A DNA stretch of 64,000 bases from Deltaproteobacteria bacterium (GTDB lineage Bacteria > Desulfobacterota > Deferrimicrobia > Deferrimicrobiales > Deferrimicrobiaceae), in contig JACRIV010000014.1 of assembly GCA_016220005.1 (NCBI GenBank), positions 695 to 64,694 of the forward strand, written 5' to 3'. Position 1 is the stretch's first letter. Each line of letters begins with the position of its first letter. Position numbers and translations under genes: made by a program. A model generated the notes under the pieces. The model worked only from the letters and a program-made list of their open reading frames with translations, did not search any database and was not told the origin of the DNA. Of this stretch, positions 14,695 to 46,747 are shown piece by piece.

Positions 14695-14770
14695 GAGCCC
14701 ATAGCTCAGTAGGTAGAGCATCTGACTTTTAATCAGAGGGTCGCAGGTTCGATTCCTGCTGGGCTCACCA
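14695..14770 (+). tRNA. tRNA-Lys (anticodon TTT)
   Basis: Acceptor GAGCCCA/TGGGCTC. D-arm GCTCAGTAGGTAGAGC. Anticodon loop CTTTTAA. T-arm GGTTCGATTCC. Encoded CCA. Confidence 0.85.
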
Positions 14771-14778
14771 GCGCACGC

Positions 14779-14856
14779 GTCCCCATCGTCTAGTCCGGCC
14801 AAGGACACCGCCCTTTCACGGCGGCGACGGGGGTTCAAATCCCCCTGGGGACGCCA
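14779..14856 (+). tRNA. tRNA-Glu (anticodon TTC)
   Basis: Acceptor GTCCCCA/TGGGGAC. Anticodon loop CTTTCAC. T-arm GGGGGTTCAAATCCCCC. Encoded CCA. Confidence 0.85.
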
Positions 14857-15028: not shown

Positions 15029-16846
15029 ATGGATTTTCTCCGCCCGGAAAACCTTCTCCGATACGGCTACAAGGACTGCCTTCTCTGCGAGGTCGAGCGA
15101 AAGGGAGAGGAGAAAAGATGCCGGCGCTGTTCCGGCAGGGTGAACCAGCGCGACCGGCTGCTCTGGGAGATCAACCGGGGGAGGATCCGCCGCATCTCCG
15201 GAAGGCTGTCCCTGATCTATCCCGGTTTCGGCCATTTCTACAGCGGCAGGATCCTCCAGGGGATATTCTGGGCCATGCTCATCCCCCTGAGCGTCGGGCT
15301 GGTCCTGAGCGTCTGGCAGGGCCCGACGATCGGCCATGCCGTCCTCCTCCTCGGCTTCGGCATGATCTATTACCTCTCCTGGCTCGACGCCCGCCGGGGG
15401 TTCCGTGTGACCCTCGCCCCCTGCCAGGAGGCCTGTCCGTCCCACCTGAACGTCCCCGACTATATCGCCCTCGTGCGCGAGGGGCGCCCGCTGGAGGCGC
15501 TCGCCCTGGTCCACGACAGGCTTCCGTTCGCCGCCTTCTGCGGGAGGGCGTGCCCGCACCCCTGCGAGCAGAAATGCGTCCGCAACGAATACGACGCCCC
15601 CATCTCCATCATGGCGATCAAGCGATATGCGGCCGATCTGGGTTACGAGGCGCTGGTGGCCCCCTCCTCCGAGGTGGGGGACGGGGTCCCCGCGCCCCGC
15701 GTGGCGGTCATCGGGGCGGGCCCGGCGGGGCTGTCTGCGGCGAACACGCTCGCGCGTCTCGGTTGTCGCGCGACGGTATTCGACGCGAACGAGGAGCCCG
15801 GCGGAATGATGCGTTACTCCGTCGCGGAATTCCGTTTTCCCTACGAGGCGGGGCTCTCGGACGCCAGGACGATCCTCGCCCGGGGGGTCCATTTCCGGGG
15901 CGGGAAACGGTTCGGGCGGGATTTCACCTTCGCCGACCTCGCGGAAGAAGGGTTCGACGCCGTGCTGGTCGCCGTCGGCACGAATGACGCGGTCCGCCTT
16001 CCCGGCGTGGGGGGAGGGGACGAAGGGTTCATCGATGCCCTGATGTTCCTTTCCGGCGTGAGGCGCGGCAAGCTGTACCATCTCCGCGGCAGGCTCGTGG
16101 TCATCGGCGGCGGGAACGTCGCCATTGACGTGGCGAGGGTAGCGGTCCGGCTCGGGGCGGAGGACGTGACGATCGCTTGCCTGGAGTCCAGGGAGACGAT
16201 GCCGGCCTTCCGCTGGGAGGTCGAGGATGCGCTCGCCGAGGGGGTGAAGCTTCTGCCGGGCACGGCGGTGAAGAAGTTCCTGCTCCGGGAGGGGCGTGTT
16301 TCGGGATTCGAGGCGCTCGAAGTGGAGAGGATCGAGTTCGACGCGAAGGGGCGGATCGTCCCCCACACGGTCCTGGGAAGCGAGTTCGAGGTCCGCGCCG
16401 ACACGGTCGTCATGGCCATCGGAAGCCGCGCCGACATGGACTTCATACCGCCGTCCGCATCGCGCAAGCCCCTGGATGCCGCCCACCATGTTTATCGGTT
16501 GATTTTTAGGGAAAAGGAAATTAGAATCCCCGCCTATATGTGCGGCGACTGCGTGCGCGGCCCGGGCACGGTCGTCGAGGCGTCGGCCTCCGGAAGGGCG
16601 GCGGCGTTGAATGTTTTCGAGGATCTCTGCGTCCAAGAGGTCAGGAAAGCGCGGTTCGAGGATAATTACAGGCGCGCGGCCGAGCCGCAGGTCACCGACC
16701 GGCCCGAGTGGCGTTGCCGGCGGCCCGTGCCACGGCTTTCACCGGAAGAGAGCCGGCGGACTTTTCAGGAAGTGGAAAAGAGATTTGCCGAGGAAAGCGT
16801 TCACCACGAAGCGGAACGCTGTGCGCGGTGTAATCTCTGGCTATAA
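15029..16846 (+). CDS. membrane-anchored glutamate synthase small-subunit (GltD)-like NAD(P)H-dependent FAD/Fe-S oxidoreductase
   Basis: N-terminal zinc-ribbon CLLCE...CRRC plus 2 TM helices. GltD-type Fe-S region CQEACPSH...CGRACPHPCEQKC. Two Rossmann motifs VAVIGAGPAGL and VVIGGGNVAIDVA. Confidence 0.7.
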   Translation: MDFLRPENLLRYGYKDCLLCEVERKGEEKRCRRCSGRVNQRDRLLWEINRGRIRRISGRLSLIYPGFGHFYSGRILQGIFWAMLIPLSVGLVLSVWQGPTIGHAVLLLGFGMIYYLSWLDARRGFRVTLAPCQEACPSHLNVPDYIALVREGRPLEALALVHDRLPFAAFCGRACPHPCEQKCVRNEYDAPISIMAIKRYAADLGYEALVAPSSEVGDGVPAPRVAVIGAGPAGLSAANTLARLGCRATVFDANEEPGGMMRYSVAEFRFPYEAGLSDARTILARGVHFRGGKRFGRDFTFADLAEEGFDAVLVAVGTNDAVRLPGVGGGDEGFIDALMFLSGVRRGKLYHLRGRLVVIGGGNVAIDVARVAVRLGAEDVTIACLESRETMPAFRWEVEDALAEGVKLLPGTAVKKFLLREGRVSGFEALEVERIEFDAKGRIVPHTVLGSEFEVRADTVVMAIGSRADMDFIPPSASRKPLDAAHHVYRLIFREKEIRIPAYMCGDCVRGPGTVVEASASGRAAALNVFEDLCVQEVRKARFEDNYRRAAEPQVTDRPEWRCRRPVPRLSPEESRRTFQEVEKRFAEESVHHEAERCARCNLWL

Positions 16847-16872: not shown

Positions 16873-17217
16873 ATGAAGAAGTTCGCAACTTTCCTGGCGA
16901 TCGTCGCGGCGGTACTGTTCTCGGCCGGGCTGGTCATCAGCGCGGAGGCTCCGGAAAAGATCACCATCAAGTTCGTCCAGAAGACCAGGCCTCCGGTGGA
17001 GTTCCCCCACAAGGCCCACATCGCGAGGGCGAAGAACTGTCAGGAGTGCCACCACAAGAACGAGGCCGGCAAAGAGGAGAAGTGCTCCAACTGCCACAAG
17101 GCCAAGACGGAAGGCAAGGTGGTCGAGTTCAAGGAGGCCATGCACACCAAGTGCAAGGACTGCCACAAGAAACACAACGGCCCGACCAAGTGTGACGACT
17201 GCCACAAGAAGAAGTAA
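16873..17217 (+). CDS. periplasmic tetrahaem cytochrome c3-family protein
   Basis: Signal peptide. Four CxxCH motifs (CQECH, CSNCH, CKDCH, CDDCH) in about 90 mature residues. Confidence 0.85.
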   Translation: MKKFATFLAIVAAVLFSAGLVISAEAPEKITIKFVQKTRPPVEFPHKAHIARAKNCQECHHKNEAGKEEKCSNCHKAKTEGKVVEFKEAMHTKCKDCHKKHNGPTKCDDCHKKK

Positions 17218-17251
17218 ACGCTTTGCGAAAGGGATCACGGGAAAGACGGGA

Positions 17252-17283
17252 AAGGGCGGGAACCCCCCGCCCTTTCGTATTTA
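17252..17283 (+). terminator. rho-independent terminator
   Basis: AGGGCGGG-aacc-CCCGCCCT hairpin followed by TTCGTATTT. Confidence 0.6.
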
Positions 17284-17350
17284 GATTGACTACCTGTCCT
17301 CCAATATAGTATACAGTATACGTTTATCCATCATTCGAAGGTGAATCCCC

Positions 17351-18730
17351 ATGGCGGACGATAAGCGCAGTCAATCCCCGATGGACAAAGTGTGGAATCT
17401 CTTCACCTCCCTGAAGCTCGCCATCACCCTGATCATCATCATGGCCGTCGCCTCCATCTTCGGGACGGTCATCGAGCAGAACCAGCCGATCGAAAAGTAC
17501 CGGCAGTTCTACAGCGACGCGACCATCAGGATGCTCGACGCCCTGAACCTCTTCGACATGTACCATTCCTGGTGGTTCCTCCTCCTGCTCGTGCTGTTCA
17601 CCGTGAACCTTTCGTGCTGCACACTCGACCGGCTGCCGCGGGTCGTGAAGGTCGTCCGGAACCCGAAGACGAGACTCGACGACGGTCTCGAGAAGACGCT
17701 CCCCCTGGTGGACCGGTGGAAGAAGAAAGGATCCCTGCAGGCCTGGGCCGAGAAATACGCGGAAGTCGTAGGGGGTGCGGTAGGGAAACCCCTCGTGACG
17801 CAGAACAGCGAGACGCTGCACCTCTATGCCGAAAGAGGCGTCGTCTCCCGCTTCGGCGTCTACGTGACCCATCTCTCCATCATTATTATTTTCATCGGGG
17901 CGATCATCGGCAACGTGTTCGGCTTCAAGGGATACGCCAACATCGTGGAGGGGCAGTCCGTGCGGTCGATCCCGACGCGGGGAGGCTCCCGGCCCGTCGA
18001 CCTGGGGTTCGAGGTGCGGTGCAACCGGTTCGCCGTCAGCTTCTACACGGACCAGTTCGGTAACCCGACGCAGCAACCAAAGGAATACGCCTCCGACCTG
18101 AGCGTCATCGAGAACGGGCGGGAAGTGCTCCGCAAGAAGATCGTCGTCAATGACCCCCTGCAGTACAAGGGGGTCTGGTTTTACCAGTCGAGCTACGGCC
18201 CGGCCGGCGGAGCCTCCGCCCGCGTCAGGGTCAGCAGCGCGAACGGAGGCCCGGTGGCGGATCTTTCGTTCCATGCGGGCCAGCAGGTGGAGATCCCGGG
18301 GTACGGGACCATCACCGGCGTGGATTACCAGCAGGACTACCGGGGGTTCGGCCCCGCCCTTCTGGTGGTCCTTAAGAAACCCGGCGGGCAGGCGACGGAG
18401 TTCTGGCTGCTGCAGGGGCGGCCCGATTCCGACCGGCAGAGACAGGATCCGTACTTTCTCTCCTTCGGGGGCCTGAGCCAGGCCTACTACACCGGTCTCC
18501 AGGTCGCCAGGGACCCCGGCGTGAACGTGGTATGGCTGGGATGCGCCCTCATGGTCCTCGGCATCATCATCGCGTTCTTCATGTCCCATCAGCGCGTATG
18601 GGTCCGCCTGACGCCTGCCGCCGACGGCCGCGTGGAGGTCGTCCTCGCCGGTTCGGCGTCCCGAAACAGGCTTGCTTTCGAAAGGAAATTTGAGAAAATA
18701 CAGGACGATTTGAAGGCGCTCGCGGTTTGA
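17351..18730 (+). CDS. resB: cytochrome c biogenesis protein ResB/Ccs1 (System II)
   Basis: N-terminal TM helices, a large periplasmic domain and a C-terminal TM with the conserved W-rich end. Sits immediately upstream of ccsA. Confidence 0.8.
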   Translation: MADDKRSQSPMDKVWNLFTSLKLAITLIIIMAVASIFGTVIEQNQPIEKYRQFYSDATIRMLDALNLFDMYHSWWFLLLLVLFTVNLSCCTLDRLPRVVKVVRNPKTRLDDGLEKTLPLVDRWKKKGSLQAWAEKYAEVVGGAVGKPLVTQNSETLHLYAERGVVSRFGVYVTHLSIIIIFIGAIIGNVFGFKGYANIVEGQSVRSIPTRGGSRPVDLGFEVRCNRFAVSFYTDQFGNPTQQPKEYASDLSVIENGREVLRKKIVVNDPLQYKGVWFYQSSYGPAGGASARVRVSSANGGPVADLSFHAGQQVEIPGYGTITGVDYQQDYRGFGPALLVVLKKPGGQATEFWLLQGRPDSDRQRQDPYFLSFGGLSQAYYTGLQVARDPGVNVVWLGCALMVLGIIIAFFMSHQRVWVRLTPAADGRVEVVLAGSASRNRLAFERKFEKIQDDLKALAV

Positions 18731-18776
18731 AGGCCCTTTCTTTCATTCCCGCAGTCGCAACAGGAGCAGCATCGCC

Positions 18777-19616
18777 ATGATCAATGTGCGTCTTTTCGAC
18801 TTGACTACCCTCTTGTTCGGCGTGGCCTCGGTGAACTACGTGGCCGCCCTCTACGGGAAGAGAGACACTCTCGCCCGCATCGGCACCTGGATCTGCGTGG
18901 CCGCGGCGGTCGTCTCGACCGCCGCTCTCGGCGTCCGGTGGGCCGAGTCCTACCGGATGGGGATCGGGCGGATCCCGGTCACGAACCTCTACGAGTCGCT
19001 CGTGTTCTTCGCGTGGGCGGTCAACCTCTTCTATCTCGTCGTGGAGTGGAAGTACAAGAACCGCACCTTCGGCGCCTTCGTCATGCCCATCGCCTTCCTG
19101 ACCATGCTGTTCGCCTTCACGAACGAGAGCAGCATCCAGCCGCTCGTGCCCGCCCTCCAGTCCTACTGGCTCCACGCCCACGTGATCACCTGCTTCATCG
19201 GGTACGCGGCCTTCGCCGTGTCTGCCGGCGTGGCGGCGATGTACCTGCTCAAGGCCAGGCGCGAGGAGTCCAAGACCCCGGGCGGGGTGGTCGGCCTCTT
19301 CCCCTCCAGCAAGGCGCTCGACGACCTGGTCTACAAGGCGATCATCTGGGGGTTCCCGTTCCTGACCGCCGGGATCATCACGGGGGCGGCTTGGGCGAAC
19401 TACGCATGGGGGACGTACTGGTCGTGGGACCCCAAGGAGACCTGGTCGCTCATCGTCTGGCTCGTGTACGCGGCGTTCCTTCACGCCCGGATCACCCGCG
19501 GCTGGCACGGCAAGCGGGCCGCGATCCTGTCGATCGCCGGCTTCCTGGCGACGGTGATGTGTTACCTCGGGGTCAACCTGGTGCTCTCCGGGCTGCATTC
19601 CTACGGCGGCTCGTAA
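18777..19616 (+). CDS. ccsA: cytochrome c-type biogenesis protein CcsA/ResC (haem export/lyase, System II)
   Basis: Multi-TM protein with the WWD-type Trp-rich motif AAWANYAWGTYWSWDPKETWS and conserved His residues. Confidence 0.85.
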   Translation: MINVRLFDLTTLLFGVASVNYVAALYGKRDTLARIGTWICVAAAVVSTAALGVRWAESYRMGIGRIPVTNLYESLVFFAWAVNLFYLVVEWKYKNRTFGAFVMPIAFLTMLFAFTNESSIQPLVPALQSYWLHAHVITCFIGYAAFAVSAGVAAMYLLKARREESKTPGGVVGLFPSSKALDDLVYKAIIWGFPFLTAGIITGAAWANYAWGTYWSWDPKETWSLIVWLVYAAFLHARITRGWHGKRAAILSIAGFLATVMCYLGVNLVLSGLHSYGGS

Positions 19617-19670
19617 TACGCGGGTGACATAGAGACGTTCACTACTACGGTACGGGCAGGGAGGTGCCGC

Positions 19671-20969
19671 ATGCGAAAGTCTGTCGGTTCCATCGGGGTG
19701 GCCGTACTGGTACTCGGGATTTCGGGTTTTCTCCGCGGTGAATCCCTTGCGGCGGATGCCTGCGTGACGGCGGAATGTCACGCGACGATGGGAAAAGCCG
19801 CCTTCGTGCATGGCCCCGTCGGGGTGATGCAATGCGCCGTGTGCCACCTGGAGGCGAAGAAGGGGCACCCGACGAAGAAGGGACCGGACTTCAAGCTGGC
19901 GGCGACAGGCAAGGCCCTCTGCGAGAAGTGCCACCAGCCGGTGGACAGGTTCGAGTACAAGCATACCCCCGTGAAGAAGGGGGAGTGCCTCGGCTGCCAC
20001 GACCCACACCAGTCTTCCGCGGCCAAACAGCTGAAGAAGGCCAAGACGTCGGAGCTGTGCCACACCTGCCACAAGAACACGCAGCAGGCGAAGAAGTTCC
20101 TCCACGGCCCCGTGGCCACCGGCGACTGCAACGTATGCCACAACCCCCACTCCTCCCCGAATCCCAAGCAGCTCGTCGCGCGGGGTAACGACGCCTGTTT
20201 CCTCTGCCACGAGGACCGCAAGGCCGAGTTCACCCGGAAGTACCCGCACAAGCCGGCCCAGGAGTCGTGCCTGAAATGCCACGACCCCCACAATGCGGAC
20301 CATCCCTTCATGCTGGCGAGCGAGGGGACAGGGCTTTGCCTCGGCTGCCACAAGAAGATGGAGGAGCACCTAAAGACCGCGGCCGTCAAGCACGGGGCCC
20401 TCCAGAAGGGGACGTGCACCACCTGCCACACCCCTCATTCGTCCGACTACCCGAGGCAGTTGAAGACGCACACCAAGGACATCTGCTACACCTGCCACAA
20501 GGATATGGGCGCCAAGGTCCGCGCGGCGAAGAGACTGCACGGTCCCGTCCAGCAGAACGACTGCTACGCATGCCACGATCCCCACGGGAGCAGGAACCCG
20601 TTGATCCTCAAGAAATACTTCCCGTCGGAGTTCTACAAGCCGTACGCGACGGAGAATTACGCGATGTGCTTCGACTGCCACAACAAGGACATCGCGCTGG
20701 ACAAGATCACGACGAAGCTTACGAACTTCCGCAACGGCGACACGAACATGCATTTCCTCCACGTGAACAAGGAGAAGGGGCGCTCCTGCAAGGCGTGCCA
20801 CGAAGTCCACGCAGGGAACCAGGACAAGCACATCCGCAAGGAAGTGCCGTTCGGCAAGGCATGGATGCTGCCCGTCACCTACACGAAAACCCAGAACGGG
20901 GGCACCTGCGTCGTCGGCTGCCACAAGCCGAAGACCTACGACCGCGTCAGCCCCGTGAAGTACGAATAG
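19671..20969 (+). CDS. multihaem cytochrome c with at least 13 CxxCH sites; repeated c7-like modules
   Basis: Signal peptide. 13 canonical CxxCH plus one CX4CH and one CX3CH site. Recurrent H-G-P-V...C..CH.PH spacing as in polymeric c7-domain cytochromes. Confidence 0.85.
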   Translation: MRKSVGSIGVAVLVLGISGFLRGESLAADACVTAECHATMGKAAFVHGPVGVMQCAVCHLEAKKGHPTKKGPDFKLAATGKALCEKCHQPVDRFEYKHTPVKKGECLGCHDPHQSSAAKQLKKAKTSELCHTCHKNTQQAKKFLHGPVATGDCNVCHNPHSSPNPKQLVARGNDACFLCHEDRKAEFTRKYPHKPAQESCLKCHDPHNADHPFMLASEGTGLCLGCHKKMEEHLKTAAVKHGALQKGTCTTCHTPHSSDYPRQLKTHTKDICYTCHKDMGAKVRAAKRLHGPVQQNDCYACHDPHGSRNPLILKKYFPSEFYKPYATENYAMCFDCHNKDIALDKITTKLTNFRNGDTNMHFLHVNKEKGRSCKACHEVHAGNQDKHIRKEVPFGKAWMLPVTYTKTQNGGTCVVGCHKPKTYDRVSPVKYE

Positions 20970-20979
20970 GAGGGGGGGT

Positions 20980-21990
20980 ATGAGCAGGTCCCGTCGTCGC
21001 GTCCCGTTGTTTGTATTCACCTTCCTCGCGGCGGTGTGTTTCTCGACGGTCCCGGGGACAGGGTCGGCGTTCCGGAACGTCAAGGAAGGCGCCCCGGCGA
21101 TCCCCTTCACCCTCAAGGACTTCGAGGGGAAGGATTTCGAGTTCAAGCCCGACTCGGGCAGGGTCACGATCCTGTCGTTCGTGAAGCTCGCGCAGGACCG
21201 GTCGAAGGACCAGCTCAGAGATCTCGTAGCCTTGCAGGGCGAGCTCGGGCCCAAGGGGGTGGACTTCCTCATCGTCTCGAGCTATACGGACACGCCCGAG
21301 GACGCCAAGAAGGTCGCCGCGGAGATGAACGTCAAGTTCCCGATCCTCCTGGACAAGGACCAGAGGGTCTACGGGGACTACGGGCTGTTCATCCTCCCCT
21401 CCACGGGCATCGTCGGGAAGGACGGGAAGTTCGCCTTCGAGCACTCCAGCCACGGGCGCGACTTCAAGGACGTGGTGGGGGGGAAAGCCAAGGTGCTCGC
21501 CGGGCTGATGACGGAAGAGGAGTACAAGAAGCTGGTCACGCCGGTCGAAGCGGTCCGGAAGAGCAAGGAGGAGAACGAAGCCGAGCGCTTGCTGGCTCTC
21601 GGGCGGACGCTGTTCAAGCGCGGCATGCCCGACAAGGCGGCCGATAAGTTCGCCAAGGCGGTGGAGCTCGACCCGAAGAACCCGGGGGGGCGCATCGCCT
21701 ACGGAGAGTCCCTGGTGGCGTTGAAGAAGTACGACGAGGCGCTCGTCCAGTTTCAGAAGGCGAAAGAGCTTTCTCCCGCGAGCAAGGATGCGCAGTTGGG
21801 CATCGGGACCGTGCATTTGGAGAAGGGCGAGCACGACAAGGCGATCCGGGAGATCTCCGAGGCGGCGATGCTCAACCCCAAGCCCGAGAAGGCGAATTTC
21901 TGGCTCGGGGTCGCCTACGAGAAAAAGGGAGATCTCCCGAATGCGGTGAAGTACTACCGAAAGGCCGTCGAGAAGCTCATCAAGGAGTAG
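20980..21990 (+). CDS. Cys-less thioredoxin-fold (TlpA/redoxin-like) domain fused to TPR repeats
   Basis: The N-terminal half aligns with the TlpA fold (bacterial thiol-disulfide oxidoreductase), but the WCxxC position reads SFVKLAQDRS with no cysteine. The C-terminal half carries TPR-like repeats. Confidence 0.6.
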   Translation: MSRSRRRVPLFVFTFLAAVCFSTVPGTGSAFRNVKEGAPAIPFTLKDFEGKDFEFKPDSGRVTILSFVKLAQDRSKDQLRDLVALQGELGPKGVDFLIVSSYTDTPEDAKKVAAEMNVKFPILLDKDQRVYGDYGLFILPSTGIVGKDGKFAFEHSSHGRDFKDVVGGKAKVLAGLMTEEEYKKLVTPVEAVRKSKEENEAERLLALGRTLFKRGMPDKAADKFAKAVELDPKNPGGRIAYGESLVALKKYDEALVQFQKAKELSPASKDAQLGIGTVHLEKGEHDKAIREISEAAMLNPKPEKANFWLGVAYEKKGDLPNAVKYYRKAVEKLIKE

Positions 21991-22007
21991 CCGGAGGAGC
22001 GGAAATC

Positions 22008-22727
22008 ATGGCGGCGATCCGTCCGAGATCCCGGTTCTTCCTGGTCTTCCTGGCCGTCGCGGCGGGGGGGATTCTCCTCCCCGCTTTTCCCGTATCCGGT
22101 GATCCCGGCAAGTCCCCCCTGGCGGTCCTTGCCCCGGGCGATGGCGCCCTGGTGTCGGCAGGGCGTGTTCTCGTCATCGGGAGAACGGCCGGGGAAGGGA
22201 TCGTGCGGGTGGAGATCGACGTGAACGGCAAGGGGAAGCAGTCCGTCCCGGTCGCCGGCGGGGGGTTTTCGGCTTCGGTCCCCATTGCCGCCGGCAGGAA
22301 CGTCATGCGGGTGAGCGCAGGGAAGGCGTCGGTCACGACCATTGTCTCCGCGGCGGCGAACCTCTCCGCATCGGGCAAGGGGGCATACGTCTACCACGAG
22401 GGGGTGGAGAAGTGCGCCGAATGCCACGGAGCGGGGAGGAAGGGATATGCCGTCGCTTCCCCGAAAGATTCCCTCTGCTACAGGTGCCACGACCGGGTGG
22501 ACGGAAAGAAGCATCTGCACGGCCCGATGGGGAGCGGAGACTGCACGGCGTGCCACGATCCGCACGGTTCGTCCCACAAGTCGCTGACGGTGGCGCGGCC
22601 CGACTCGCTGTGCGTCACGTGCCACGATCAGAGAAGTTCCGAAGGCCATATGAATAAGTCCAGGGGGAAGGCGTGCACGTCTTGTCACGACCCGCACTCG
22701 TCGGACCGATCATTCCTCCAGAAGTAG
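22008..22727 (+). CDS. pentahaem cytochrome c with an N-terminal beta-rich domain
   Basis: Signal peptide and five CxxCH motifs (CAECH, CYRCH, CTACH, CVTCH, CTSCH). Confidence 0.8.
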   Translation: MAAIRPRSRFFLVFLAVAAGGILLPAFPVSGDPGKSPLAVLAPGDGALVSAGRVLVIGRTAGEGIVRVEIDVNGKGKQSVPVAGGGFSASVPIAAGRNVMRVSAGKASVTTIVSAAANLSASGKGAYVYHEGVEKCAECHGAGRKGYAVASPKDSLCYRCHDRVDGKKHLHGPMGSGDCTACHDPHGSSHKSLTVARPDSLCVTCHDQRSSEGHMNKSRGKACTSCHDPHSSDRSFLQK

Positions 22728-22758
22728 TTGTCCGGGGGGAATGACTTTCAGGGGGGAG

Positions 22759-23892
22759 ATGATGGGAAGGAAGGGGAAGGCGGCGAAGGCCCTTGCCTCG
22801 CTTCTGCTTTTTGTCATCGGGTTGTATGCCGCCCCGAAGGCCGCCGCCGCGTTCAAGAACGTCCAGGGGGGGATGGAGGCGCCCGCTTTTCGCCTGAAGG
22901 ACGCGGCAGGCAACGAGGTTTCCCTCGACGCGTTCAGGAAGGAGAAGGCCGTGCTCGTCGTCTTCTGGGCGACGTGGAGCGGCCGGTCGCTTGCGGAGCT
23001 CAAGGACGTCCAGAAACTGCTCGCGGAGATGGAAGCGAAAGGCCTGAAGGCGGTCGCCGTCAACGTGGAGCACGAGCACATGACGGACGAGGACTTGCGG
23101 GCAATCAAGGATAAGGTCGGGGAGCTCAAGCTGACATACCCCGTCGTGTTCGACTCCGGCCTGGAGACGTTCCGCAGCTACGGAGTGGTTGCGGTCCCCT
23201 CCACGGCCATCCTGGGCGAGGGAGGGGTGGTCCGCAGCGCGGTCAACGGCTACCCGACCTTCGTCCTCGCCGAGATCAGGGAACAGGTGGAGGTGCTGCT
23301 GGGCATAAGGAAACCGGAGACCGCCGTGGCGGCGAAGGCGGACACGGCGCATAAGCCGACCCGGCAGGCGCTCCTGAACTACAACCTCGGGCGCAGGCTT
23401 TACGCTTCCGGAATGGCCGACAAGGCCGAGCCGAAGCTCAAGACCGCGGTCGGCGCGGACCCGAACTGGGCGGCTCCCCACGTGCTCCTGGGGGACATCT
23501 ATCTCGCGAAGGCGAGGAAGGACCCGAAGAAGGCCGAGGAGGCGAAGAAGGAGTTCGAGGCCGCCATTGCCGCGGACAAGGGAAACGTGGTGGCGAGGAC
23601 CGGTCTGGCCCGGGTATACTGGAACGCGGGCGCGGCCGCCGACGCCGAGAAGGAAGTCGGCGAGGCGCTTTCGATCAGCGGCTCGTATCCTCCGGCCCTG
23701 ATGCTCAAGGCCGCTGTTCTGGCCAGGAAGGGAAATCTCCCCGAGGCGGACAACCTGATCCGCAGCGCACTCGAGCTTTCCGGGAGGGACCCCGAGGCGC
23801 ATGCCCTGGCAGGACGCGTCTACGAGGAGGCGGGGGAGCTTCAGAAAGCCGCGGGAATGTACCGGAAGGCGTGGCAATTGATCGGGGAGTGA
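22759..23892 (+). CDS. Cys-less TlpA-like thioredoxin-fold domain (WATWSGRS in place of WCxxC) fused to TPR repeats; paralogue of 20980-21990
   Basis: VLVVFWATWSGRSLAELKDV matches the TlpA active-site context with both Cys replaced by Ser. C-terminal TPR repeats. Start chosen at an internal ATG with GGGGGGAGA upstream (ORF track 22741). Confidence 0.6.
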   Translation: MMGRKGKAAKALASLLLFVIGLYAAPKAAAAFKNVQGGMEAPAFRLKDAAGNEVSLDAFRKEKAVLVVFWATWSGRSLAELKDVQKLLAEMEAKGLKAVAVNVEHEHMTDEDLRAIKDKVGELKLTYPVVFDSGLETFRSYGVVAVPSTAILGEGGVVRSAVNGYPTFVLAEIREQVEVLLGIRKPETAVAAKADTAHKPTRQALLNYNLGRRLYASGMADKAEPKLKTAVGADPNWAAPHVLLGDIYLAKARKDPKKAEEAKKEFEAAIAADKGNVVARTGLARVYWNAGAAADAEKEVGEALSISGSYPPALMLKAAVLARKGNLPEADNLIRSALELSGRDPEAHALAGRVYEEAGELQKAAGMYRKAWQLIGE

Positions 23893-23912
23893 CGGGGGGC
23901 GGCACGGCAGAA

Positions 23913-24029
23913 ATGAGGACACGATTCATCGCGTTTCTGATTACCGCCGCGGCGGCCGGCACAGTGCTCGTGTACGGGATATACCGCGAGGAGATCGGCG
24001 AAGTCCTGTTCAACGCCGCGATGCTTTGA
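23913..24029 (+). CDS. possible 38-aa single-TM small protein (MRTRFIAFLITAAAAGTVLVYGIYREEIGEVLFNAAML)
   Basis: An intact ATG-to-TGA ORF with a hydrophobic core in the 165-nt gap before the NapH-like gene. Weak RBS. Below the ORF-track size cutoff. Confidence 0.25.
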   Translation: MRTRFIAFLITAAAAGTVLVYGIYREEIGEVLFNAAML

Positions 24030-24057
24030 CTGTCCTGCATCGGGGTCGGGTGATCCC

Positions 24058-24948
24058 GTGGCATTCCTGAAACGGCGGATCTTCCAGACGCTGGGGACCG
24101 TTCTGCCCAACTCCTACGTCCAGGGGTTTTCCCTTTCCCTGGCACACGGCGCGCTGAAAATCTCCCCGGCCCTGTACCAGGGATCGCTGAAGAGCATCTG
24201 CACGCCCCTCCTGAACTGTTACGCCTGCCCCTCGGCGCTCTTTTCCTGCCCCATCGGGACGCTGCAGCATTTCATGGTGACGGGGAACGTCCCCTATTAC
24301 GCGGCGGGCACGCTCTCTCTGGTGGGCGCTTCGGTGGGGCGCATGACGTGCGGCACCCTCTGCCCGTTCGGGTTCCTCCAGGACCTCCTCTACAAGTTCC
24401 GGAGCTGGAAGGTTTCGATCCCGGTCTGGACCCGCCACTTCCGGTATGCCGTCCTGGCCATCCTCGTCTTCCTGATCCCTTATCTCACCCACGAGAACTG
24501 GTTCTCCAAGCTCTGCCCCATGGGGACGCTGATCGGGGGGCTCACGTGGGTCACCCTCGAGCTGAACGTCCGGGCGATGATCCGTTACCTCTTCTGGGTG
24601 AAGATTTCCATCCTGCTCTTCTTCGTCACCACGTCGCTCCTGGTCAAGCGCCCCTTCTGCCGCGTCGTCTGCCCGCTGGGTGCGATCTTCTCCCTGTTCA
24701 ACAAGTCCAGTTTCATCCAGTTGGCATGGAACCCGGACACCTGCACCCGGTGCGGCAAGTGCCAGAAGATCTGCCCCGTGGACATCCGCCCGGACCGGAA
24801 CCAGACCAACCCGGATTGCCTCCGCTGCCTGGACTGCACGCGCTGCCCCAGCCTGAAGCTGACGACCGTCCTCCACAGGAACCCGTTCGCAATGCCGTCT
24901 CCGGCGGGCAAGGGAGCGGAGGGCGTCGAGGAGGTCCTTGCCCGTTGA
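24058..24948 (+). CDS. NapH/MauN/NosR-type membrane-bound polyferredoxin (4Fe-4S)
   Basis: GTG start. TM helices with CX3CP motifs (CGTLCP, CRVVCP). Two C-terminal ferredoxin clusters CTRCGKCQKICP and CLRCLDCTRCP. Confidence 0.75.
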   Translation: MAFLKRRIFQTLGTVLPNSYVQGFSLSLAHGALKISPALYQGSLKSICTPLLNCYACPSALFSCPIGTLQHFMVTGNVPYYAAGTLSLVGASVGRMTCGTLCPFGFLQDLLYKFRSWKVSIPVWTRHFRYAVLAILVFLIPYLTHENWFSKLCPMGTLIGGLTWVTLELNVRAMIRYLFWVKISILLFFVTTSLLVKRPFCRVVCPLGAIFSLFNKSSFIQLAWNPDTCTRCGKCQKICPVDIRPDRNQTNPDCLRCLDCTRCPSLKLTTVLHRNPFAMPSPAGKGAEGVEEVLAR

Positions 24949-25889
24949 CCGTCCGCAATCGACTCCCGCTCCTCCCGCTCCTCCTGCTCCTCCTCCTCAC
25001 GACTCCGACCGGCGCCGCCGAGGAGCCCCTCGTCCTCTTTCCTCCGGACCTTACCCTGGCCACGGAGGGGAAGATCAAGATCTTCGCCTACGTCCCCGGC
25101 GGGAAGACCCCGCTCTCCGTCTCGGTGAACGGAATCGCGAGGGATCCGTTGAAGGGGGAGGCGTTCCGGAGCGGGGAAGCGGAGCTGTCCCCCGGGATGA
25201 ATCTCCTCGACGTGGGAGGGAAATACCTTCGCGTCTTCCTGATCCCCGGCACGAAAATGGAGCAGTTTCGCATGCCCACGGAAAAAGAGGACGCCCCGCT
25301 CGTCTACCGATCCTTCCGCCTGCACCCCGCGCTGGATGACGGCTGCGCGGGGTGCCACACCCTCGAGGGCGGAAAGCTCAAGGCGATAGACCAGAAAGAG
25401 GCGTGCTACGCCTGCCACGACAATTTCGAGAAGGAGGAGGAGGGGAAGAAGAAATACGTGCACAGCCCCGTGGCCGCCGGGGAGTGCACGGGGTGCCACG
25501 ACCCGCATTTTTCCAGCCGTACCAAGCTTCAAAAGCTCGAAAAGGGGTGTATGGAGTGCCACGATCCCTTCCCGACGGAAGGGGTCGTCCACTATCCCGT
25601 CGGGAACGGGGAGTGCACGGCGTGCCACAGCCCGCACGCGGGGCCGGCCCCGAAGCAGCTCGTCCGCGCCGGCAACGCCCTTTGCCTGGGATGTCACGAG
25701 CACGCCCATATCCAGCACCGGTCCGCGACGGTACTGAAAAATCCGGAAATCACCCAGATTCCCCCCGACATTCCGAGAGAGAAAGACCAGTTGTCCTGCC
25801 TTGCGTGCCATCGGCCCCACCAGTCCGGCGAGCGGCGTCTTTTCCGCAGGAATCAGGGTGAGCTATGCAAGACCTGCCATCTGGTCTAG
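24945..25889 (+). CDS. octahaem cytochrome c
   Basis: Probable TTG start overlapping the upstream stop. Signal peptide. Eight CxxCH motifs. The coding frame is confirmed through the stop at 25889. Confidence 0.7.
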   Translation: MTVRNRLPLLPLLLLLLLTTPTGAAEEPLVLFPPDLTLATEGKIKIFAYVPGGKTPLSVSVNGIARDPLKGEAFRSGEAELSPGMNLLDVGGKYLRVFLIPGTKMEQFRMPTEKEDAPLVYRSFRLHPALDDGCAGCHTLEGGKLKAIDQKEACYACHDNFEKEEEGKKKYVHSPVAAGECTGCHDPHFSSRTKLQKLEKGCMECHDPFPTEGVVHYPVGNGECTACHSPHAGPAPKQLVRAGNALCLGCHEHAHIQHRSATVLKNPEITQIPPDIPREKDQLSCLACHRPHQSGERRLFRRNQGELCKTCHLV

Positions 25890-25918
25890 CGTCCCCCTGA
25901 AAGGGGAATGACAGCCGA

Positions 25919-27415
25919 ATGCGATTTGTTCCCCGTTCCCTGTTCTTCAAGATGTCCCTGTCAATCAGCCTCGTGCTGGCGGTCATCTTCGGGGCGTCCT
26001 CCTACATCACCTTCCGGATCCAGTCCGAACAGGCGCTCGACGCCACCCGCAGCCAGGCGATCCTGCTCACGAGGGCGTTGAAGAACACGATCCGCATCGG
26101 GATGGAGACGGGACACATCGAGTCCCTGATGTCGATCTTCCACACCGTGGGGGCGCTGCCGGGCGTGGAGAAGCTGCGGGTCTTCGACGAGGAGGGCCGG
26201 ATCCTCTACTCGGCGAAGCTGTCGGAAATCGGGAAGCTCACCGACGAGCTCGACTACGCGGTCTACCGGAGCCCCGAGCGGAGCACCCCGTTCCAGAGCG
26301 CCAATACGGGCCACCGCTCGTTCTGCATGGTGGAGCCGGTCGAGAACGAACCGCGGTGCCAGCGATGTCACCGCAGGGAGATCGAGACCCTCGGTGTCCT
26401 CGACGTCTGCCTGTCCATGGAGGAAACCGAGAAAAAGATCGAGTTCAACCGGCTCCTCATGCTCTCCTTCACGGGGCTGGCGATCGTCCTCACCTCGGGC
26501 ATGACCAGCATCCTCCTGAAGCGGTTCGTCTCCAATCCCGTCGCGAAGCTCGTGGGCACGATGGAATCGGTGGAGGCCGGGAAGCTGGACGGGAGGGTGG
26601 ATATCCGCAGCGGCGACGAGCTCGGCCGCCTCGGGAACAGCTTCAACGAGATGATCCGCAAGCTCTCCGAGGCCCAGGCCGAGATCGAGAAGTTCCACCA
26701 CCGGCAGCTGGCACGGGCGGACCGGCTGGCGTCCCTGGGCGAGATGGCCGCCGGGATCGCCCACGAGATCAAGAACCCCCTCGCCGGCATCTACGGCGCG
26801 GCGCAGGTCCTCTCCAAGGAGTTCCCCGAGGGGGACCCCAAGCGCGAGATCCTGGACGAGATGATGGCGCTCATGAAGCGGCTCGACAACACCATCAGGG
26901 ATCTCCTGAACTTCTCCCGGTACACGGAGCCGCAGTTCTCGGAGGCCAGCTTGAACGACGTGATCGACAAGGTCCTGTTCCTCGTGAAGCAGATCCCCGA
27001 AGGGAAGCGGGCGACCATCACCCGGGAGTTCGACCCCGCGATGCCGGAGATCGAGATGGACCAGGAACAGATCAAGCAGGTCTTCCTGAACCTGGTGCTC
27101 AACGCCCTCCAGGCGAAGCCGGGAGGCTGCTCCCTCACCATCCGCACCTATTCGGAAGTCCCGGCGGACGTGCCCGACGTCAAGCATAACGCCCGCTTCG
27201 TGACGGCCTCGGTGACCGACGACGGCCCGGGGATTCCCGCCGACAAGATCGGGAAGATCTTCCAGCCGTTTTTCACCACGAAGGAAGCCGGAACGGGCCT
27301 GGGCCTCTCGATGACCCGGAAGATCCTCGATCTCCACGACGGGTGGATCACCGCTTCCAGCGAGGTGGGGAAAGGGGCCACCTTCCGGGTCTTCCTCCCC
27401 AAGGTCAAGCTGTGA
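25919..27415 (+). CDS. sensor histidine kinase with a haem c-binding (CxxCH) periplasmic sensor domain
   Basis: TM1 (residues about 10-32), a periplasmic domain containing CQRCH, TM2, HAMP, H-box GIAHEIKNPLAGI, and HATPase_c (DDGPGI, GTGLGL). Confidence 0.8.
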   Translation: MRFVPRSLFFKMSLSISLVLAVIFGASSYITFRIQSEQALDATRSQAILLTRALKNTIRIGMETGHIESLMSIFHTVGALPGVEKLRVFDEEGRILYSAKLSEIGKLTDELDYAVYRSPERSTPFQSANTGHRSFCMVEPVENEPRCQRCHRREIETLGVLDVCLSMEETEKKIEFNRLLMLSFTGLAIVLTSGMTSILLKRFVSNPVAKLVGTMESVEAGKLDGRVDIRSGDELGRLGNSFNEMIRKLSEAQAEIEKFHHRQLARADRLASLGEMAAGIAHEIKNPLAGIYGAAQVLSKEFPEGDPKREILDEMMALMKRLDNTIRDLLNFSRYTEPQFSEASLNDVIDKVLFLVKQIPEGKRATITREFDPAMPEIEMDQEQIKQVFLNLVLNALQAKPGGCSLTIRTYSEVPADVPDVKHNARFVTASVTDDGPGIPADKIGKIFQPFFTTKEAGTGLGLSMTRKILDLHDGWITASSEVGKGATFRVFLPKVKL

Positions 27416-27519
27416 CGGAGTGAAACTTCTCCCGGGTGCATTCCGTATACATATCGTGGGCCCTACCCCGGGTGTTCGGTTATAATCGATAAGATTATCT
27501 TAAAGGACCCCCCCAGAAG

Positions 27520-28971
27520 ATGGCGCGTTCCAAGATACTGGTGGTGGACGACGAGCGGATGATCCGCTGGTCCATCCAGCAGGCGCTCTCCAAGGACGGG
27601 CACGCCGTGGCGACGGTGGAGACCGGCGAGGAGGCGGTCGCCCAAGCCACCGACGACACCCCCGACCTCGTCCTGCTGGACATCACCCTTCCCGGAATCG
27701 ACGGGATCGAGGTCCTGCGCCGCCTGAAGGCCCACGAACCCGCCATCACGGTGGTCATGGTCACCGCGACCGAGGAGCTGAAGACCGCCGTCGAGGCGAT
27801 GCGCCTGGGGGCGTATGACTACGTCAGCAAGCCGTTCGACATCGACCGCCTCCGGGTCATCGTCCAGAATGCCCTGGACCGGCACGAGCTGAGCCAGGAA
27901 GTGGAGTTCCACCGGAAGGAATCCGTAAAGAAATACGGTTTCCACCGGATCATCGGGGTCAGCCGCAAGTTGAAGGACGTGGTGGAGATCGCCCGGAAGG
28001 TGGCGAAGTCCGAGGCGGCGACCGTCCTCCTCCAGGGGGAGAGCGGCACCGGAAAGGACCTGCTCGCCCAGGCGATCCACTACGAAAGCAGCCGGGCCAC
28101 CCGCCCCTTCATCCCCATCAACTGCACCGCGCTCCCGGAGGAGCTTCTCGAGTCGGAGCTGATGGGCCACGAGAAGGGCGCCTTCACCGACGCCAAGACG
28201 ACCAAGAAGGGGCTCTTCGAGGTGGCGGTCGGCGGAACGATCTTCCTGGACGAAATCGGCGACATGAAGCCGGGGCTCCAGGCCAAGCTGCTGCGGTTCA
28301 TCGAGGGCAAGGCGTTCCGCCGCGTGGGGGGCCACCGGGACATCTCGGTGGACGTCCGGATCATCGCGGCGACGAACAGCAACCTGGCGGCACTCGTCAA
28401 GAGCGGACAGTTCCGGGAGGACCTCTTTTTCCGGCTGAACGTGATCCCGATCCACATCCCTCCCTTGCGGGAGCGGAGGGAGGACATCCTGCCGCTGGCG
28501 GGACACTACCTTGCCGAGTTTTCCAGCGACTTCAAGCGGGACCTCCGCCGGTTCTCGGAGAGGGCGAAGAGACAAATGCTCTCGCACGACTGGCCGGGGA
28601 ACGTCCGGGAGTTGAGGAACGTAATCGAGCGGGCGATCATCCTGGGCGCCGAGGGGCAGGTGGACACCCTCGACCTGCCGGTTGCGGAGAGCCGGCTGGA
28701 CTGGGGTGCGTACACCGCCGGATCCCCGGACAGTGCAGGGGGAGAGGCCTCGGCGGAACCGGTTGGAGATTCTCCTGCCGGCCCGCCGGAGGGACCAGGC
28801 GCCGTGTTCATTCTTCCCCCCATGGGGATTGTGTTGGAGGACGTGGAGAGGGACTTCATCCGGCAGGCGCTGGAGATGACCCAGGGGAACCAGACAAAGG
28901 CCGCGGAATCACTCGGATTGACGCGGGATGCCTTACGGTACAGGATGAAAAAATACGGTTTCTTGCAATAG
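27520..28971 (+). CDS. sigma-54-dependent response regulator, NtrC family
   Basis: REC domain. AAA+ motifs GESGTGKD, GAFTDA and ESELMGHE. C-terminal Fis-type HTH. Confidence 0.9.
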   Translation: MARSKILVVDDERMIRWSIQQALSKDGHAVATVETGEEAVAQATDDTPDLVLLDITLPGIDGIEVLRRLKAHEPAITVVMVTATEELKTAVEAMRLGAYDYVSKPFDIDRLRVIVQNALDRHELSQEVEFHRKESVKKYGFHRIIGVSRKLKDVVEIARKVAKSEAATVLLQGESGTGKDLLAQAIHYESSRATRPFIPINCTALPEELLESELMGHEKGAFTDAKTTKKGLFEVAVGGTIFLDEIGDMKPGLQAKLLRFIEGKAFRRVGGHRDISVDVRIIAATNSNLAALVKSGQFREDLFFRLNVIPIHIPPLRERREDILPLAGHYLAEFSSDFKRDLRRFSERAKRQMLSHDWPGNVRELRNVIERAIILGAEGQVDTLDLPVAESRLDWGAYTAGSPDSAGGEASAEPVGDSPAGPPEGPGAVFILPPMGIVLEDVERDFIRQALEMTQGNQTKAAESLGLTRDALRYRMKKYGFLQ

Positions 28972-29100
28972 CGGCGATTCACTTCACGCATGCTCAACTG
29001 GGCATTTTCCCTCAAGGCGGGTGATATGGCCGCACGGTAAAAACGAGGCTAAGGCCTCTATTAAAAAAGGTATTCCAAGAAGATAAGGGAAACGCGAATG

Positions 29101-29117
29101 TTGGCACCGAAAATGCT
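29101..29117 (+). promoter_or_regulatory. sigma-54 (-24/-12) promoter: TTGGCACCGAAAATGCT
   Basis: TGGCAC at 29102-29107 and GC at 29115-29116 with the canonical spacing. Lies 130 nt downstream of the sigma-54 activator gene and upstream of the NHL-protein/14-haem cytochrome operon. Confidence 0.6.
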
Positions 29118-29184
29118 CAATTACCGGAGGGGGCAGATGGAAAGGGAAACGTGTGGCAGTTCACGCAGTGCAGGGGGTATGAAG

Positions 29185-35570: not shown

Positions 35571-35580
35571 GCTGGACCGC

Positions 35581-36165: not shown

Positions 36166-36202
36166 GGGAAGAGTACGGCTTCCTTTTGCAGGAGAGCGGG
36201 AC

Positions 36203-37357: not shown

Positions 37358-37359
37358 CC

Positions 37360-46739: not shown

Positions 46740-46747
46740 TGCTGTTG

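Follow-up and report, generated by a model that had tools for sequence, protein, structure and literature searches.

The window, a 64,000-nucleotide stretch of contig JACRIV010000014.1 from the assembly of a deltaproteobacterium of the family Deferrimicrobiaceae (GCA_016220005.1), carried a block of genes on its forward strand (16873–28971) that formed one tightly packed run of open reading frames (ORFs). The block encoded multihaem cytochromes, ResB and CcsA, and two further proteins, here called A and B, which are the subject of this study; their genes alternate with those of the cytochromes (Table 1). Between the gene of a cytochrome with 13 CxxCH motifs (cyt13) and that of an eight-haem cytochrome, the intergenic gaps were 4–20 nucleotides (nt), with one 4-nt overlap, and a scan of the operon region found no strong terminator-like hairpin before position 33137. 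An earlier note, made from the sequence, had described the segment 20980–23892 as encoding two paralogous proteins with a TlpA-type thioredoxin fold and C-terminal tetratricopeptide repeats (TPRs), interleaved with multihaem cytochromes. Both ORFs were found at these coordinates on the forward strand, and the interleaving was confirmed, within an operon that holds cytochrome genes together with the System II synthase genes resB and ccsA.

A and B aligned end to end with 26% identity (E = 1e-21), which indicated that they are paralogues. In Pfam searches, the N-terminal half of A matched AhpC-TSA (1.6e-14) and that of B matched AhpC-TSA (3.3e-19) and Redoxin (1.2e-16), and the C-terminal halves matched several TPR families in A and TPR families in B. 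A profile search of the PDB built from B homologues placed ResA at the top for the N-terminal domain (4nmu, 6.7e-21), and ResA was also the top match in single-sequence searches with the N-terminal domain of each protein. AlphaFold models computed on family alignments had mean predicted local distance difference test (pLDDT) scores of 81 for B and 87 for A, and predicted template modelling scores (pTM) of 0.51–0.55, at which the relative placement of the domains is uncertain. When the models were compared with the PDB by Foldseek, ResA structures were again at the top, with template modelling (TM) scores on the target of 0.83–0.92 (0.92 for A and 0.83–0.85 for B) and root-mean-square deviations of 1.6–2.3 Å over approximately 136–140 residues. 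These results placed both N-terminal domains within the thioredoxin superfamily, as the earlier note had supposed, and the TPRs that it had described were likewise recovered by Pfam and in the models. A consisted of a predicted signal peptide (approximately residues 1–30), a ResA-like domain (approximately 31–175), linker helices, and four TPRs (196–335); B consisted of a predicted signal peptide (approximately 1–37), a ResA-like domain (approximately 38–190), and five TPRs (208–382). The repeat numbers agreed with the models, in which 8 helices were predicted after residue 196 of A and 10 after residue 208 of B. At the N-terminus of both proteins, a basic and a hydrophobic stretch preceded an AxA-like site (GSA|F for A and AAA|F for B), with a helix over residues 8–29 in the models; from these signal sequences, A and B were predicted to be secreted into the periplasm. 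None of the NCBIfam models reached its cutoff with A or B, and the best, that of the ResA subfamily, gave 66 bits against a cutoff of 170.

In the alignment with ResA, the catalytic cysteines were missing from both proteins. S80 and S83 of B corresponded to C74 and C77 of ResA, E86 of B corresponded to E80, and P153 lay in the cis-Pro loop. In A, whose former active site reads ILSFVKLAQDRS, Q72 and S75 stood at the cysteine positions, Q78 stood at the glutamate position, and P140 lay in the cis-Pro loop. The loops themselves (VAVPST in B and ILPST in A) matched the PLPTT loop of ResA, and their prolines were invariant in each family. Thus, elements of the ResA substrate groove appear to be kept, namely the cis-Pro loop in both proteins and the Glu80 equivalent in B. 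B contained no cysteine at all. The single cysteine of A, C20, fell within the hydrophobic core of its predicted signal peptide, so that both mature proteins are free of cysteine. The earlier note had read VVFWATWSGRS correctly in what proved to be B, but it had assigned the complete lack of cysteine to the other protein, in which C20 is present. C20 is not conserved, the family consensus having Phe at that position, and hence is not a functional residue. The possibility that A is a lipoprotein anchored through C20 was ruled out, since the preceding A-A-V is unlike a lipobox and the cysteine is absent from the family consensus. A peroxiredoxin function of the AhpC/TSA type was also ruled out, since the peroxidatic cysteine is absent and the mature proteins contain no other.

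The loss of the active site extended over a family of homologues. In database searches, no fewer than 120 B-type and approximately 100 A-type homologues at 57–84% identity were retrieved from many metagenomes, together with more distant ones at 27–48%. W-S-x-R-[S/A] was present in all of the B-type homologues examined (at least 120), and the A-type homologues examined (approximately 100) had [S/A]-Q-[D/E]-R-S. In the curated alignment of B, residues F75, A77, W79, S80, R82, and P153 were invariant; in that of A, F67, S75, and P140 were invariant and Q72 and R74 nearly so. An exhaustive HMMER scan of the N-terminal domain of B against 1.84 billion cluster representatives gave 697 matches at E ≤ 1e-10. 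Among the best 150 of these 697 matches, the CxxC was missing in 124, with S-x-R-S in 78 and mostly S-x-[N/K/Q]-S in the remainder; the majority were proteins of approximately 370 amino acids with a C-terminal extension of approximately 200 residues, and the 26 that had a CxxC were ordinary WCxxC proteins. The family comprised at least approximately 120 clusters at 50% identity from several uncultivated phyla, and its conservation indicated that the Cys-free ResA-like proteins are a large, old family under selection.

A sequencing error, which the earlier note had named as a possible source of the missing CxxC, was excluded by the codons (AGC GGC CGG TCG in B and CAG GAC CGG TCG in A) together with the conservation of the Cys-less motif in the approximately 120 B-type and 100 A-type homologues: conversion of TCG into a cysteine codon takes two changes, and restoration of the whole CxxC would take several substitutions. 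Because the CxxC is missing and its loss is conserved across the family, A and B cannot exchange disulfides or act as thiol:disulfide reductases; on this point the earlier note was right. The labels that the homologues currently bear in databases are 'redoxin domain-containing', 'TPR repeat protein', 'peroxiredoxin', and 'TlpA disulfide reductase family'; those that name a redoxin, a peroxiredoxin, or a TlpA disulfide reductase cannot be right for Cys-free proteins. Relatives were labelled Candidatus Deferrimicrobiaceae or Deferrimicrobia. A search for a cultured representative found none, and a literature search found no paper on Cys-less TlpA-TPR proteins.

To define the genetic context of the family, we compared 57 loci from species-representative genomes, all of them metagenome-assembled genomes (MAGs), and further metagenome contigs; the ORFs of the fetched loci were labelled by BLAST and phmmer against the window proteins. 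In essentially every locus that contained cytochrome genes, an orthologue of cyt13 lay immediately upstream of a Cys-less ResA-TPR gene. The MAGs with this arrangement were labelled Deferrimicrobia, Rokubacteria, Thermodesulfobacteriota/Deferrisomatales, Zixibacteria, Ignavibacteria, Eisenbacteria, Krumholzibacteriota, and Nitrospirota, and a cyt13 orthologue was likewise encoded directly upstream of divergent family members whose former active site reads SSKS or SESS. The cyt13 orthologues were 42–87% identical and were better conserved than A or B. Two layouts were found. The first was (GltD-like)-(c3)-ResB-CcsA-cyt13-A-(five-haem cytochrome)-B-small ORF-NapH-like-(eight-haem cytochrome)-kinase-regulator. 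The second was cyt13-B-17-haem cytochrome-NHL and further genes, without A, the NapH-like protein, or the small ORF. At least 24 loci (approximately 60%), which came from four lineages, had the ResB and CcsA genes immediately before cyt13, whereas approximately 15 (approximately 40%) lacked the pair nearby. Since cyt13 was adjacent also where ResB and CcsA were not nearby, the tightest partner of the family is cyt13 and not the maturation machinery.

The cyt13 protein was distantly related to the decahaem cytochromes DmsE and MtrA (TIGR03508, 1.3e-40, below the cutoff; MtrA chain 6r2q_A, 5e-15). Besides its 13 CxxCH motifs, it had a CX4CH directly after the signal peptide (C31-VTAE-C36-H) and a CX3CH (C413) in a conserved C-terminal tail, GG-x-C-V-V-G-C-H-K-P-K-x-Y-D. 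Both additional motifs were kept in 40 of the 43 orthologues across phyla, and for this reason cyt13 probably binds 15 haems. The CxxCH counts of 13, 5, and 8 that the earlier note gave for the neighbouring cytochromes were correct, although its description of the first as a 13-haem protein probably falls short by two.

Two roles fit the pattern of adjacency to cyt13 equally well, that of a dedicated chaperone and that of a structural component of the mature complex. In the latter case, which is the main alternative to the reading preferred below, A and B would be lasting structural or adaptor components of a complex for electron transfer in the periplasm, which would also contain the NapH-like membrane Fe-S protein and the 13/15-, 5-, and 8-haem cytochromes. 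Their TPRs and inert thioredoxin domain would serve solely as docking modules, like the b and b' domains of PDI, and would keep the cytochromes aligned or anchor them at the inner membrane. The one-to-one pairing with cyt13, which was seen across phyla both with and without ResB and CcsA nearby, is consistent with this, as are the tight packing of the operon from cyt13 through the eight-haem cytochrome with no strong internal terminator, and the alternation of the two paralogues with the cytochromes, which would be expected if each paired with one. The two-paralogue layout also nearly always included a membrane electron-entry module (NapH-like and GltD-like proteins) and its own regulators. 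However, the retention of ResA groove features (the cis-Pro in both and Glu86 in B) and the frequent presence of a dedicated ResB/CcsA pair point to maturation, family members also occur in loci free of cytochromes, and we know of no described multihaem cytochrome complex with a thioredoxin-fold subunit. We regard a structural role as somewhat unlikely.

The reading that we prefer, with a little less than even confidence, is that A and B are dedicated, thiol-independent assembly factors (holdases or escorts) for the neighbouring multihaem cytochromes, chiefly cyt13. Such a role is suggested by gene context and by precedent. A and B appear to descend from the ResA/CcmG class through loss of the CxxC, retention of the groove, and fusion to a TPR clamp in the style of CcmI and NrfG. 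They would bind the unfolded apocytochrome after its export by Sec, the ResA-like groove binding near the haem-binding motifs and the TPRs binding a conserved helical or terminal segment of the client; with their help the apoprotein would stay soluble until it is passed to the ResB/CcsA synthase that the operon itself encodes. Any disulfide reduction still required would come from other proteins, perhaps the CxxC TlpA-like paralogues in the window or a candidate UxxC selenopeptide encoded next to B, which is described below. The S-x-R-S of B and the Q-[DE]-R-S of A were conserved across more than 200 homologues, which indicated that the proteins are under selection yet unable to exchange disulfides, and the five ordinary CxxC TlpA-like genes of the window meant that the redox step need not come from A or B.

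Precedents exist for this proposal. According to PMC3601427, which cites Fabianek 1998 and Turkarslan 2008, low-level cytochrome c formation persists in Escherichia coli with a Cys-to-Ser CcmG, which binds apocytochrome, and this was read as a holdase role. CcmI, NrfG, and SirG are TPR apocytochrome chaperones (PMC3601427, PMC6976685), of which NrfG and SirG are each dedicated to a single atypical cytochrome (PMC12285233, PMC6976685), and NrfG and CcmI recognise the client at its C-terminal helical region (PMC12285233); by analogy, the conserved C-terminal tail of cyt13 is a plausible TPR ligand. Atypical cytochromes are known to have dedicated synthases and accessory proteins, such as NrfEFG for CXXCK and the Wolinella CcsBA isoenzymes NrfI (CXXCK) and CcsA1 (CX15CH), and SirEFG with the TPR chaperones SirG and CcmI serves SirA (PMC12285233, PMC6976685). 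With its non-standard motifs and its own ResB and CcsA, cyt13 matches this pattern of dedicated lyases and chaperones.

A and B nevertheless differed from each of the known systems. They share with ResA, CcsX, and CcmG the fold, a predicted secretion, the cis-Pro and, in B, the Glu of ResA E80, and a genetic association with ResB/CcsA and c-type cytochromes; they differ in having S-x-R-S or Q-D-R-S instead of the CxxC and in carrying a C-terminal TPR extension of approximately 150–190 residues, and they scored far below the cutoffs of the NCBIfam models of ResA, StoA, TlpA, and DsbE. With CcmI (CycH), NrfG, and SirG they share a periplasmic TPR module encoded beside maturation genes or a specific target cytochrome. 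Those proteins, however, are System I (CcmF/H) components that lack a thioredoxin domain, and CcmI has a membrane anchor of its own, whereas A and B occur in a System II context; with a TPR model below threshold, no System I context, and no CcmI anchor, A and B are not members of the CcmI/NrfG group. CnoX (YbbN) has the same domain order, with an N-terminal thioredoxin fold (SQHC in E. coli, without a working CxxC) and C-terminal TPRs, and is a holdase (PMC10998233, PMC8129009). It differs from A and B in being cytoplasmic, working with GroEL/DnaK, being activated by HOCl, being of the classical thioredoxin type, and having no link to cytochromes. Against the classical thioredoxin model PF00085, B gave 16.7 bits (cutoff, 23.5) and A gave no match; A and B, predicted to be secreted and of another thioredoxin subtype, are not CnoX. 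A preprint on Tenderiales describes a cluster of CcsAB, an NrfG-like TPR protein, NHL, and cytochromes, without such a thioredoxin-TPR fusion. Thus, A and B represent a natural and widespread family of Cys-free ResA-TPR fusions, mostly dedicated to one DmsE/MtrA-like 13/15-haem cytochrome. The earlier note had called them an undescribed accessory class for cytochrome c maturation. No paper or curated family was found, in agreement with this, but the class is a reasonable hypothesis rather than an established one, and the design is less novel than claimed, because CnoX/YbbN already combines a redox-dead thioredoxin fold with TPRs in a holdase and a thiol-independent holdase role of CcmG had been reported.

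Several observations weigh against the holdase or escort role. On the Pfam model TPR_CcmH_CycH (PF23914), A came near the threshold, with 40.0 bits against a gathering score of 42, and B gave no match. Gene context and precedent are what tie A and B to apocytochromes, and adjacency to one cytochrome is equally expected of a stoichiometric subunit of a mature complex; moreover, ResB and CcsA were not nearby in the fraction of cyt13 loci given above. The CX3CH and CX4CH motifs of cyt13 do not prove a special need for maturation, since such motifs are also found in ordinary cytochromes c3. WSxRS members also occurred away from cytochrome genes (adjoining selA/selB, upstream of nuo genes, and after dnaK), so that the function of the family is not exclusively related to cytochromes. 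In two of these loci (L047, 6497–11080, from an unclassified MAG, and L048, 6550–11119, from a Rokubacteria MAG that also holds the cytochrome and selenopeptide cluster as L024), a WSPRS ResA-TPR member was divergent to adjoining selA and selB genes, as confirmed by Pfam; the association may be due to chance. In three MAGs (L055, 6991–10948; L057, 6360–10311; L059, 7851–11832), two tandem genes of secreted WSPRS TlpA-like proteins without detectable TPRs directly followed dnaK, in the usual place of dnaJ; this chaperone-like context is at least compatible with a role in proteostasis and to that extent speaks for the holdase reading. In L027, the family member lay upstream of the nuo genes.

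A simple holdase also leaves the invariant Arg of the former active site without a role, and the main feature that this model does not explain is the invariance of Arg and Ser where the CxxC once stood. One explanation would be a rebuilt small-ligand site, in which the helix N-terminus, the Ser, and the invariant Arg bind either an anion, for example a propionate of haem, or an oxyanion substrate destined for the cytochromes; A and B would then be carriers of a cofactor or substrate and not protein chaperones. In favour of such a site, the Arg and Ser were invariant in two families otherwise only 26% identical, and among more distant members the position varied but stayed polar (S-x-[R/N/K]-S). 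The fusion to TPRs, however, favours protein or peptide ligands, and to our knowledge there is no precedent for the binding of haem or an oxyanion at this position of a TlpA fold; we consider this explanation very improbable.

A further gene was found next to B. The 165-nt 'gap' between the B gene and that of the NapH-like protein encoded MRTRFIAFLITAAAAGTVLVYGIYREEIGEVLFNAAML-TGA-LSCIGVG-stop, that is, a peptide with N-terminal basic residues, one transmembrane helix, and the sequence LFNAAML-U-LSCIGVG, where U denotes the TGA codon at 24027–24029. The same layout was present in 32 loci of Deferrimicrobia, Rokubacteria, and Thermodesulfobacteriota, always with a basic N-terminus, a hydrophobic helix, an acidic stretch, F-N-x-x-x-x, TGA, LSCIGVG, and a stop codon. 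Besides the window, the loci recorded with the selenopeptide were L001, L003, L004, L006–L021, L024, L026, L029, L033–L037, L045, and L050. Among 26 distinct sequences, all of the nucleotide differences in the seven codons after the TGA were synonymous (Leu as CTG, CTT, CTA, or CTC; Ser as TCN and AGY; Cys as TGC or TGT; Ile as ATC, ATT, or ATA; Gly as GGG, GGA, or GGT; Val as GTC or GTA), whereas the upstream transmembrane part diverged freely. This purely synonymous variation indicated that the segment after the TGA is translated. In addition, a Cys-containing orthologue, P0390, which was 78% identical, reads ...NAAILCLSCIGVG. The gene was unannotated, and gene callers had ended the other orthologues at the TGA.

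A conserved hairpin of 6–7 bp (GGGGUC, GGGU loop, GAYCCC) began 14 nt downstream of the UGA, where a selenocysteine insertion sequence (SECIS) would be expected in bacteria, and folded in all of the loci. Pairing was kept in 88.8% of cells, compared with 41–57% in slid controls. However, the folding energy was no better than that of shuffled sequences (z = 0.15), the hairpin overlaps coding sequence, and Rfam gave no match for it. The hairpin would thus fit a SECIS without independently proving one, and because neither its energy nor Rfam gave support, the assignment as a selenoprotein rests on the codon-level conservation and the Cys orthologue. No selA, selB, selD, or tRNA-Sec gene was found in the 64-kb window; selA and selB were present in the Rokubacteria MAG (L048) that also carries the selenopeptide (L024). 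With Cys in place of U, the peptide aligned over the full 38-position model of the CD1871A family of CXXC proteins (NCBIfam NF040920), on which no paper was found; the score, 30.2 bits, was under the cutoff of 32. It resembles this family in the full-length match and in the CxxC near the C-terminus and differs in that its first Cys is encoded by UGA as a candidate selenocysteine. The 46-residue product therefore looks like a new, selenocysteine-containing member of a family of small CxxC membrane proteins, coupled to the NapH-like Fe-S protein. Its gene preceded that of the NapH-like protein in 30 of the 32 NapH-bearing loci, which represented at least three lineages. In the two exceptions, the selenopeptide was missing although the NapH-like gene was present (L031, 11053–11488, from a Deferrisomatales MAG) or was truncated or frameshifted upstream of a conserved TGA-LSCIGVG (L032, approximately 11040–11120); each may be an assembly error or a real loss. 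Loci of the second layout have B without the selenopeptide. Neither the selenopeptide nor the five CxxC TlpA-like genes of the window had been mentioned in the earlier note.

From the distribution of charges, the peptide is predicted to have its N-terminus inside and its C-terminus outside, so that the U-x-x-C tail would be periplasmic. In combination with the NapH-like protein and the GltD-like flavoprotein encoded in synteny, the peptide could supply the periplasm with reducing equivalents. A further possibility is a split thiol/selenol reductase, in which the chemistry and the substrate recognition of ResA are divided between the selenopeptide and B, perhaps with A. The membrane-anchored selenopeptide would reduce the disulfides of apocytochrome CxxCH motifs; its own re-reduction would proceed by way of the NapH-like Fe-S protein, with NAD(P)H as a possible electron source via the GltD-like flavoprotein. 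B, and perhaps A, would bind the substrate, dock the C-terminal tail of the peptide at the former active site, or do both, and the invariant Arg could stabilise the selenolate. In line with this idea, the selenopeptide gene starts 20 nt downstream of B, ends 4 nt ahead of the NapH-like gene, and accompanies the latter in 30 of 32 loci; also in line with it are the predicted periplasmic position of UxxC, the invariant Arg and Ser at the second half of the old CxxC in both paralogue families, the synteny of the GltD-like gene with the NapH-containing layout, and the WSPRS member adjoining selA/selB in two MAGs, although this adjacency is a single evolutionary observation that may be due to chance. 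On the other hand, many members keep WSxRS and cyt13 with no NapH-like protein or selenopeptide nearby (the layout cyt13-B-17-haem cytochrome-NHL; L044 and L061), and CxxC TlpA-like reductases are present in the window. We consider a split reductase improbable.

In its most extended form, the operon would encode a complete non-canonical route of apocytochrome handling in which the two functions of ResA are separated, a proposal that we put forward as distinctly unlikely. Electrons from NAD(P)H would enter by the membrane-anchored GltD-like flavoprotein, cross the membrane by way of the NapH-like Fe-S protein, and arrive in the periplasm on the UxxC tail of the 46-residue selenoprotein. This tail would act as a swinging arm, comparable to the Cys-Sec C-terminus of thioredoxin reductase in mammals. 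Recognition and holding of the substrate would fall to the Cys-less ResA-TPR proteins, which might dock the selenopeptide at the S-x-R-S site. If true, this would be a new alternative to the pathway of thioredoxin, CcdA/DsbD, and ResA.

Table 1. Positions of the genes and sequence features of the locus in the 64,000-nt window
Feature	Position	Strand	Basis or remark
GltD-like NAD(P)H-dependent Fe-S flavoprotein with Cys-rich N-terminal segment and two hydrophobic segments	15029–16846	+	NCBIfam PRK12771 5.2e-111, below cutoff; synteny
Tetrahaem cytochrome c3-like protein, 114 aa	16873–17217	+	First gene of the block; 4 CxxCH; Pfam Cytochrom_CIII
ResB	17351–18730	+	Pfam ResB 6.6e-107; System II cytochrome c synthase partner
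CcsA	18777–19616	+	Pfam Cytochrom_C_asm 4e-57; System II synthase with ResB; directly upstream of cyt13
cyt13, DmsE/MtrA-like multihaem cytochrome, 432 aa	19671–20969	+	13 CxxCH + CX4CH + CX3CH; synteny
Protein A, 336 aa	20980–21990	+	ORF; Pfam AhpC-TSA + TPR; AlphaFold; Foldseek
Dead active site of A (Q72-D73-R74-S75 replaces CxxC)	21193–21204	+	ResA alignment; codons
Five-haem cytochrome, 239 aa, with N-terminal Ig-like domain	22008–22727	+	Between A and B; 5 CxxCH; Pfam Paired_CXXCH_1
Protein B, 383 aa	22741–23892	+	ORF; Pfam; AlphaFold; Foldseek; Cys count
Dead active site of B (W79-S80-G81-R82-S83 replaces W-C-x-x-C)	22975–22989	+	ResA alignment; codons
Candidate 46-aa selenoprotein (selenopeptide)	23913–24053	+	TGA at 24027–24029; conserved layout in 32 loci; Cys orthologue
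SECIS-like hairpin 3' of UGA	24036–24063	+	GGGGUC / GGGU loop / GAUCCC
NapH/MauN-like membrane Fe-S protein, Fer4_5 + two 4Fe-4S motifs	24058–24948	+	Pfam Fer4_5 3.7e-15; TIGR02163 6e-18, below cutoff
Eight-haem cytochrome, approximately 314 aa	24945–25889	+	Start inferred from TTG at 24945; 8 CxxCH; start-codon scan; Pfam
Sensor histidine kinase	25919–27415	+	ORF; Pfam of orthologues in L001, L003, L004; syntenic with cluster
Sigma-54 response regulator	27520–28971	+	ORF; Pfam of orthologues in L001, L003, L004; syntenic with cluster
NHL-repeat protein	29098–30771		Downstream of the block
14-haem cytochrome	30877–33099		Downstream of the NHL-repeat gene
CxxC TlpA-like gene (CAAC)	33207–33713	+	
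PPIase	33852–35570		Among CxxC TlpA-like genes
CxxC TlpA-like gene (CSAC)	35545–36165	+	
7-haem cytochrome	36062–37357		Among CxxC TlpA-like genes
CxxC TlpA-like gene (WCDIC)	37327–37935	+	
CxxC TlpA-like gene (CSAC)	37932–38471	+	
8-haem cytochrome	38481–39674		Among CxxC TlpA-like genes
CxxC TlpA-like gene (CASC)	55329–55874	-	

Four of the five ordinary CxxC TlpA-like genes were interleaved with multihaem cytochrome genes and a PPIase gene downstream of the 14-haem cytochrome, and the pairing of thioredoxin-like accessory genes with cytochrome genes seems, from this arrangement, to be a general habit of the genome. Neither CcdA nor DsbD was found among the window ORFs scanned. The two hydrophobic segments of the GltD-like flavoprotein are probably transmembrane, and the protein could serve as an electron-input module; its gene was syntenic with the NapH-containing layout in many loci. 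Two tRNA genes at 14695–14856, tRNA-Lys(UUU) and tRNA-Glu(UUC), separated purA from the gene of the GltD-like protein. Between the sigma-54 regulator gene and those of the NHL-repeat protein and 14-haem cytochrome, TGGCACCGAAAATGC at 29102–29116 matched the sigma-54-type -24/-12 promoter with one mismatch; as evidence for a promoter it was dropped, since a scan of the window gave one such one-mismatch match against 2.9 expected by chance. At 44001–48000, the G+C content fell from approximately 0.63 to 0.42–0.55 and the ORFs resembled glycosyltransferase and polysaccharide genes; this region may be an acquired island.

From the time that partial function was seen in Cys-less CcmG variants, it has been debated whether thioredoxins of the CcmG and ResA type serve cytochrome c maturation in ways beyond the delivery of electrons. 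A family that has permanently lost its cysteines, has kept the groove, and has acquired CcmI-like TPRs is a clean test system for thiol-independent handling of apocytochromes. As a separate lead, the UxxC selenopeptide and its NapH-like partner may represent a new way of delivering reducing power to the periplasm. The findings are of interest to the fields of cytochrome c biogenesis and extracellular electron transfer, and they bear on how the very long multihaem cytochromes of extracellular and periplasmic electron transfer stay competent for 13–15 successive haem attachments.

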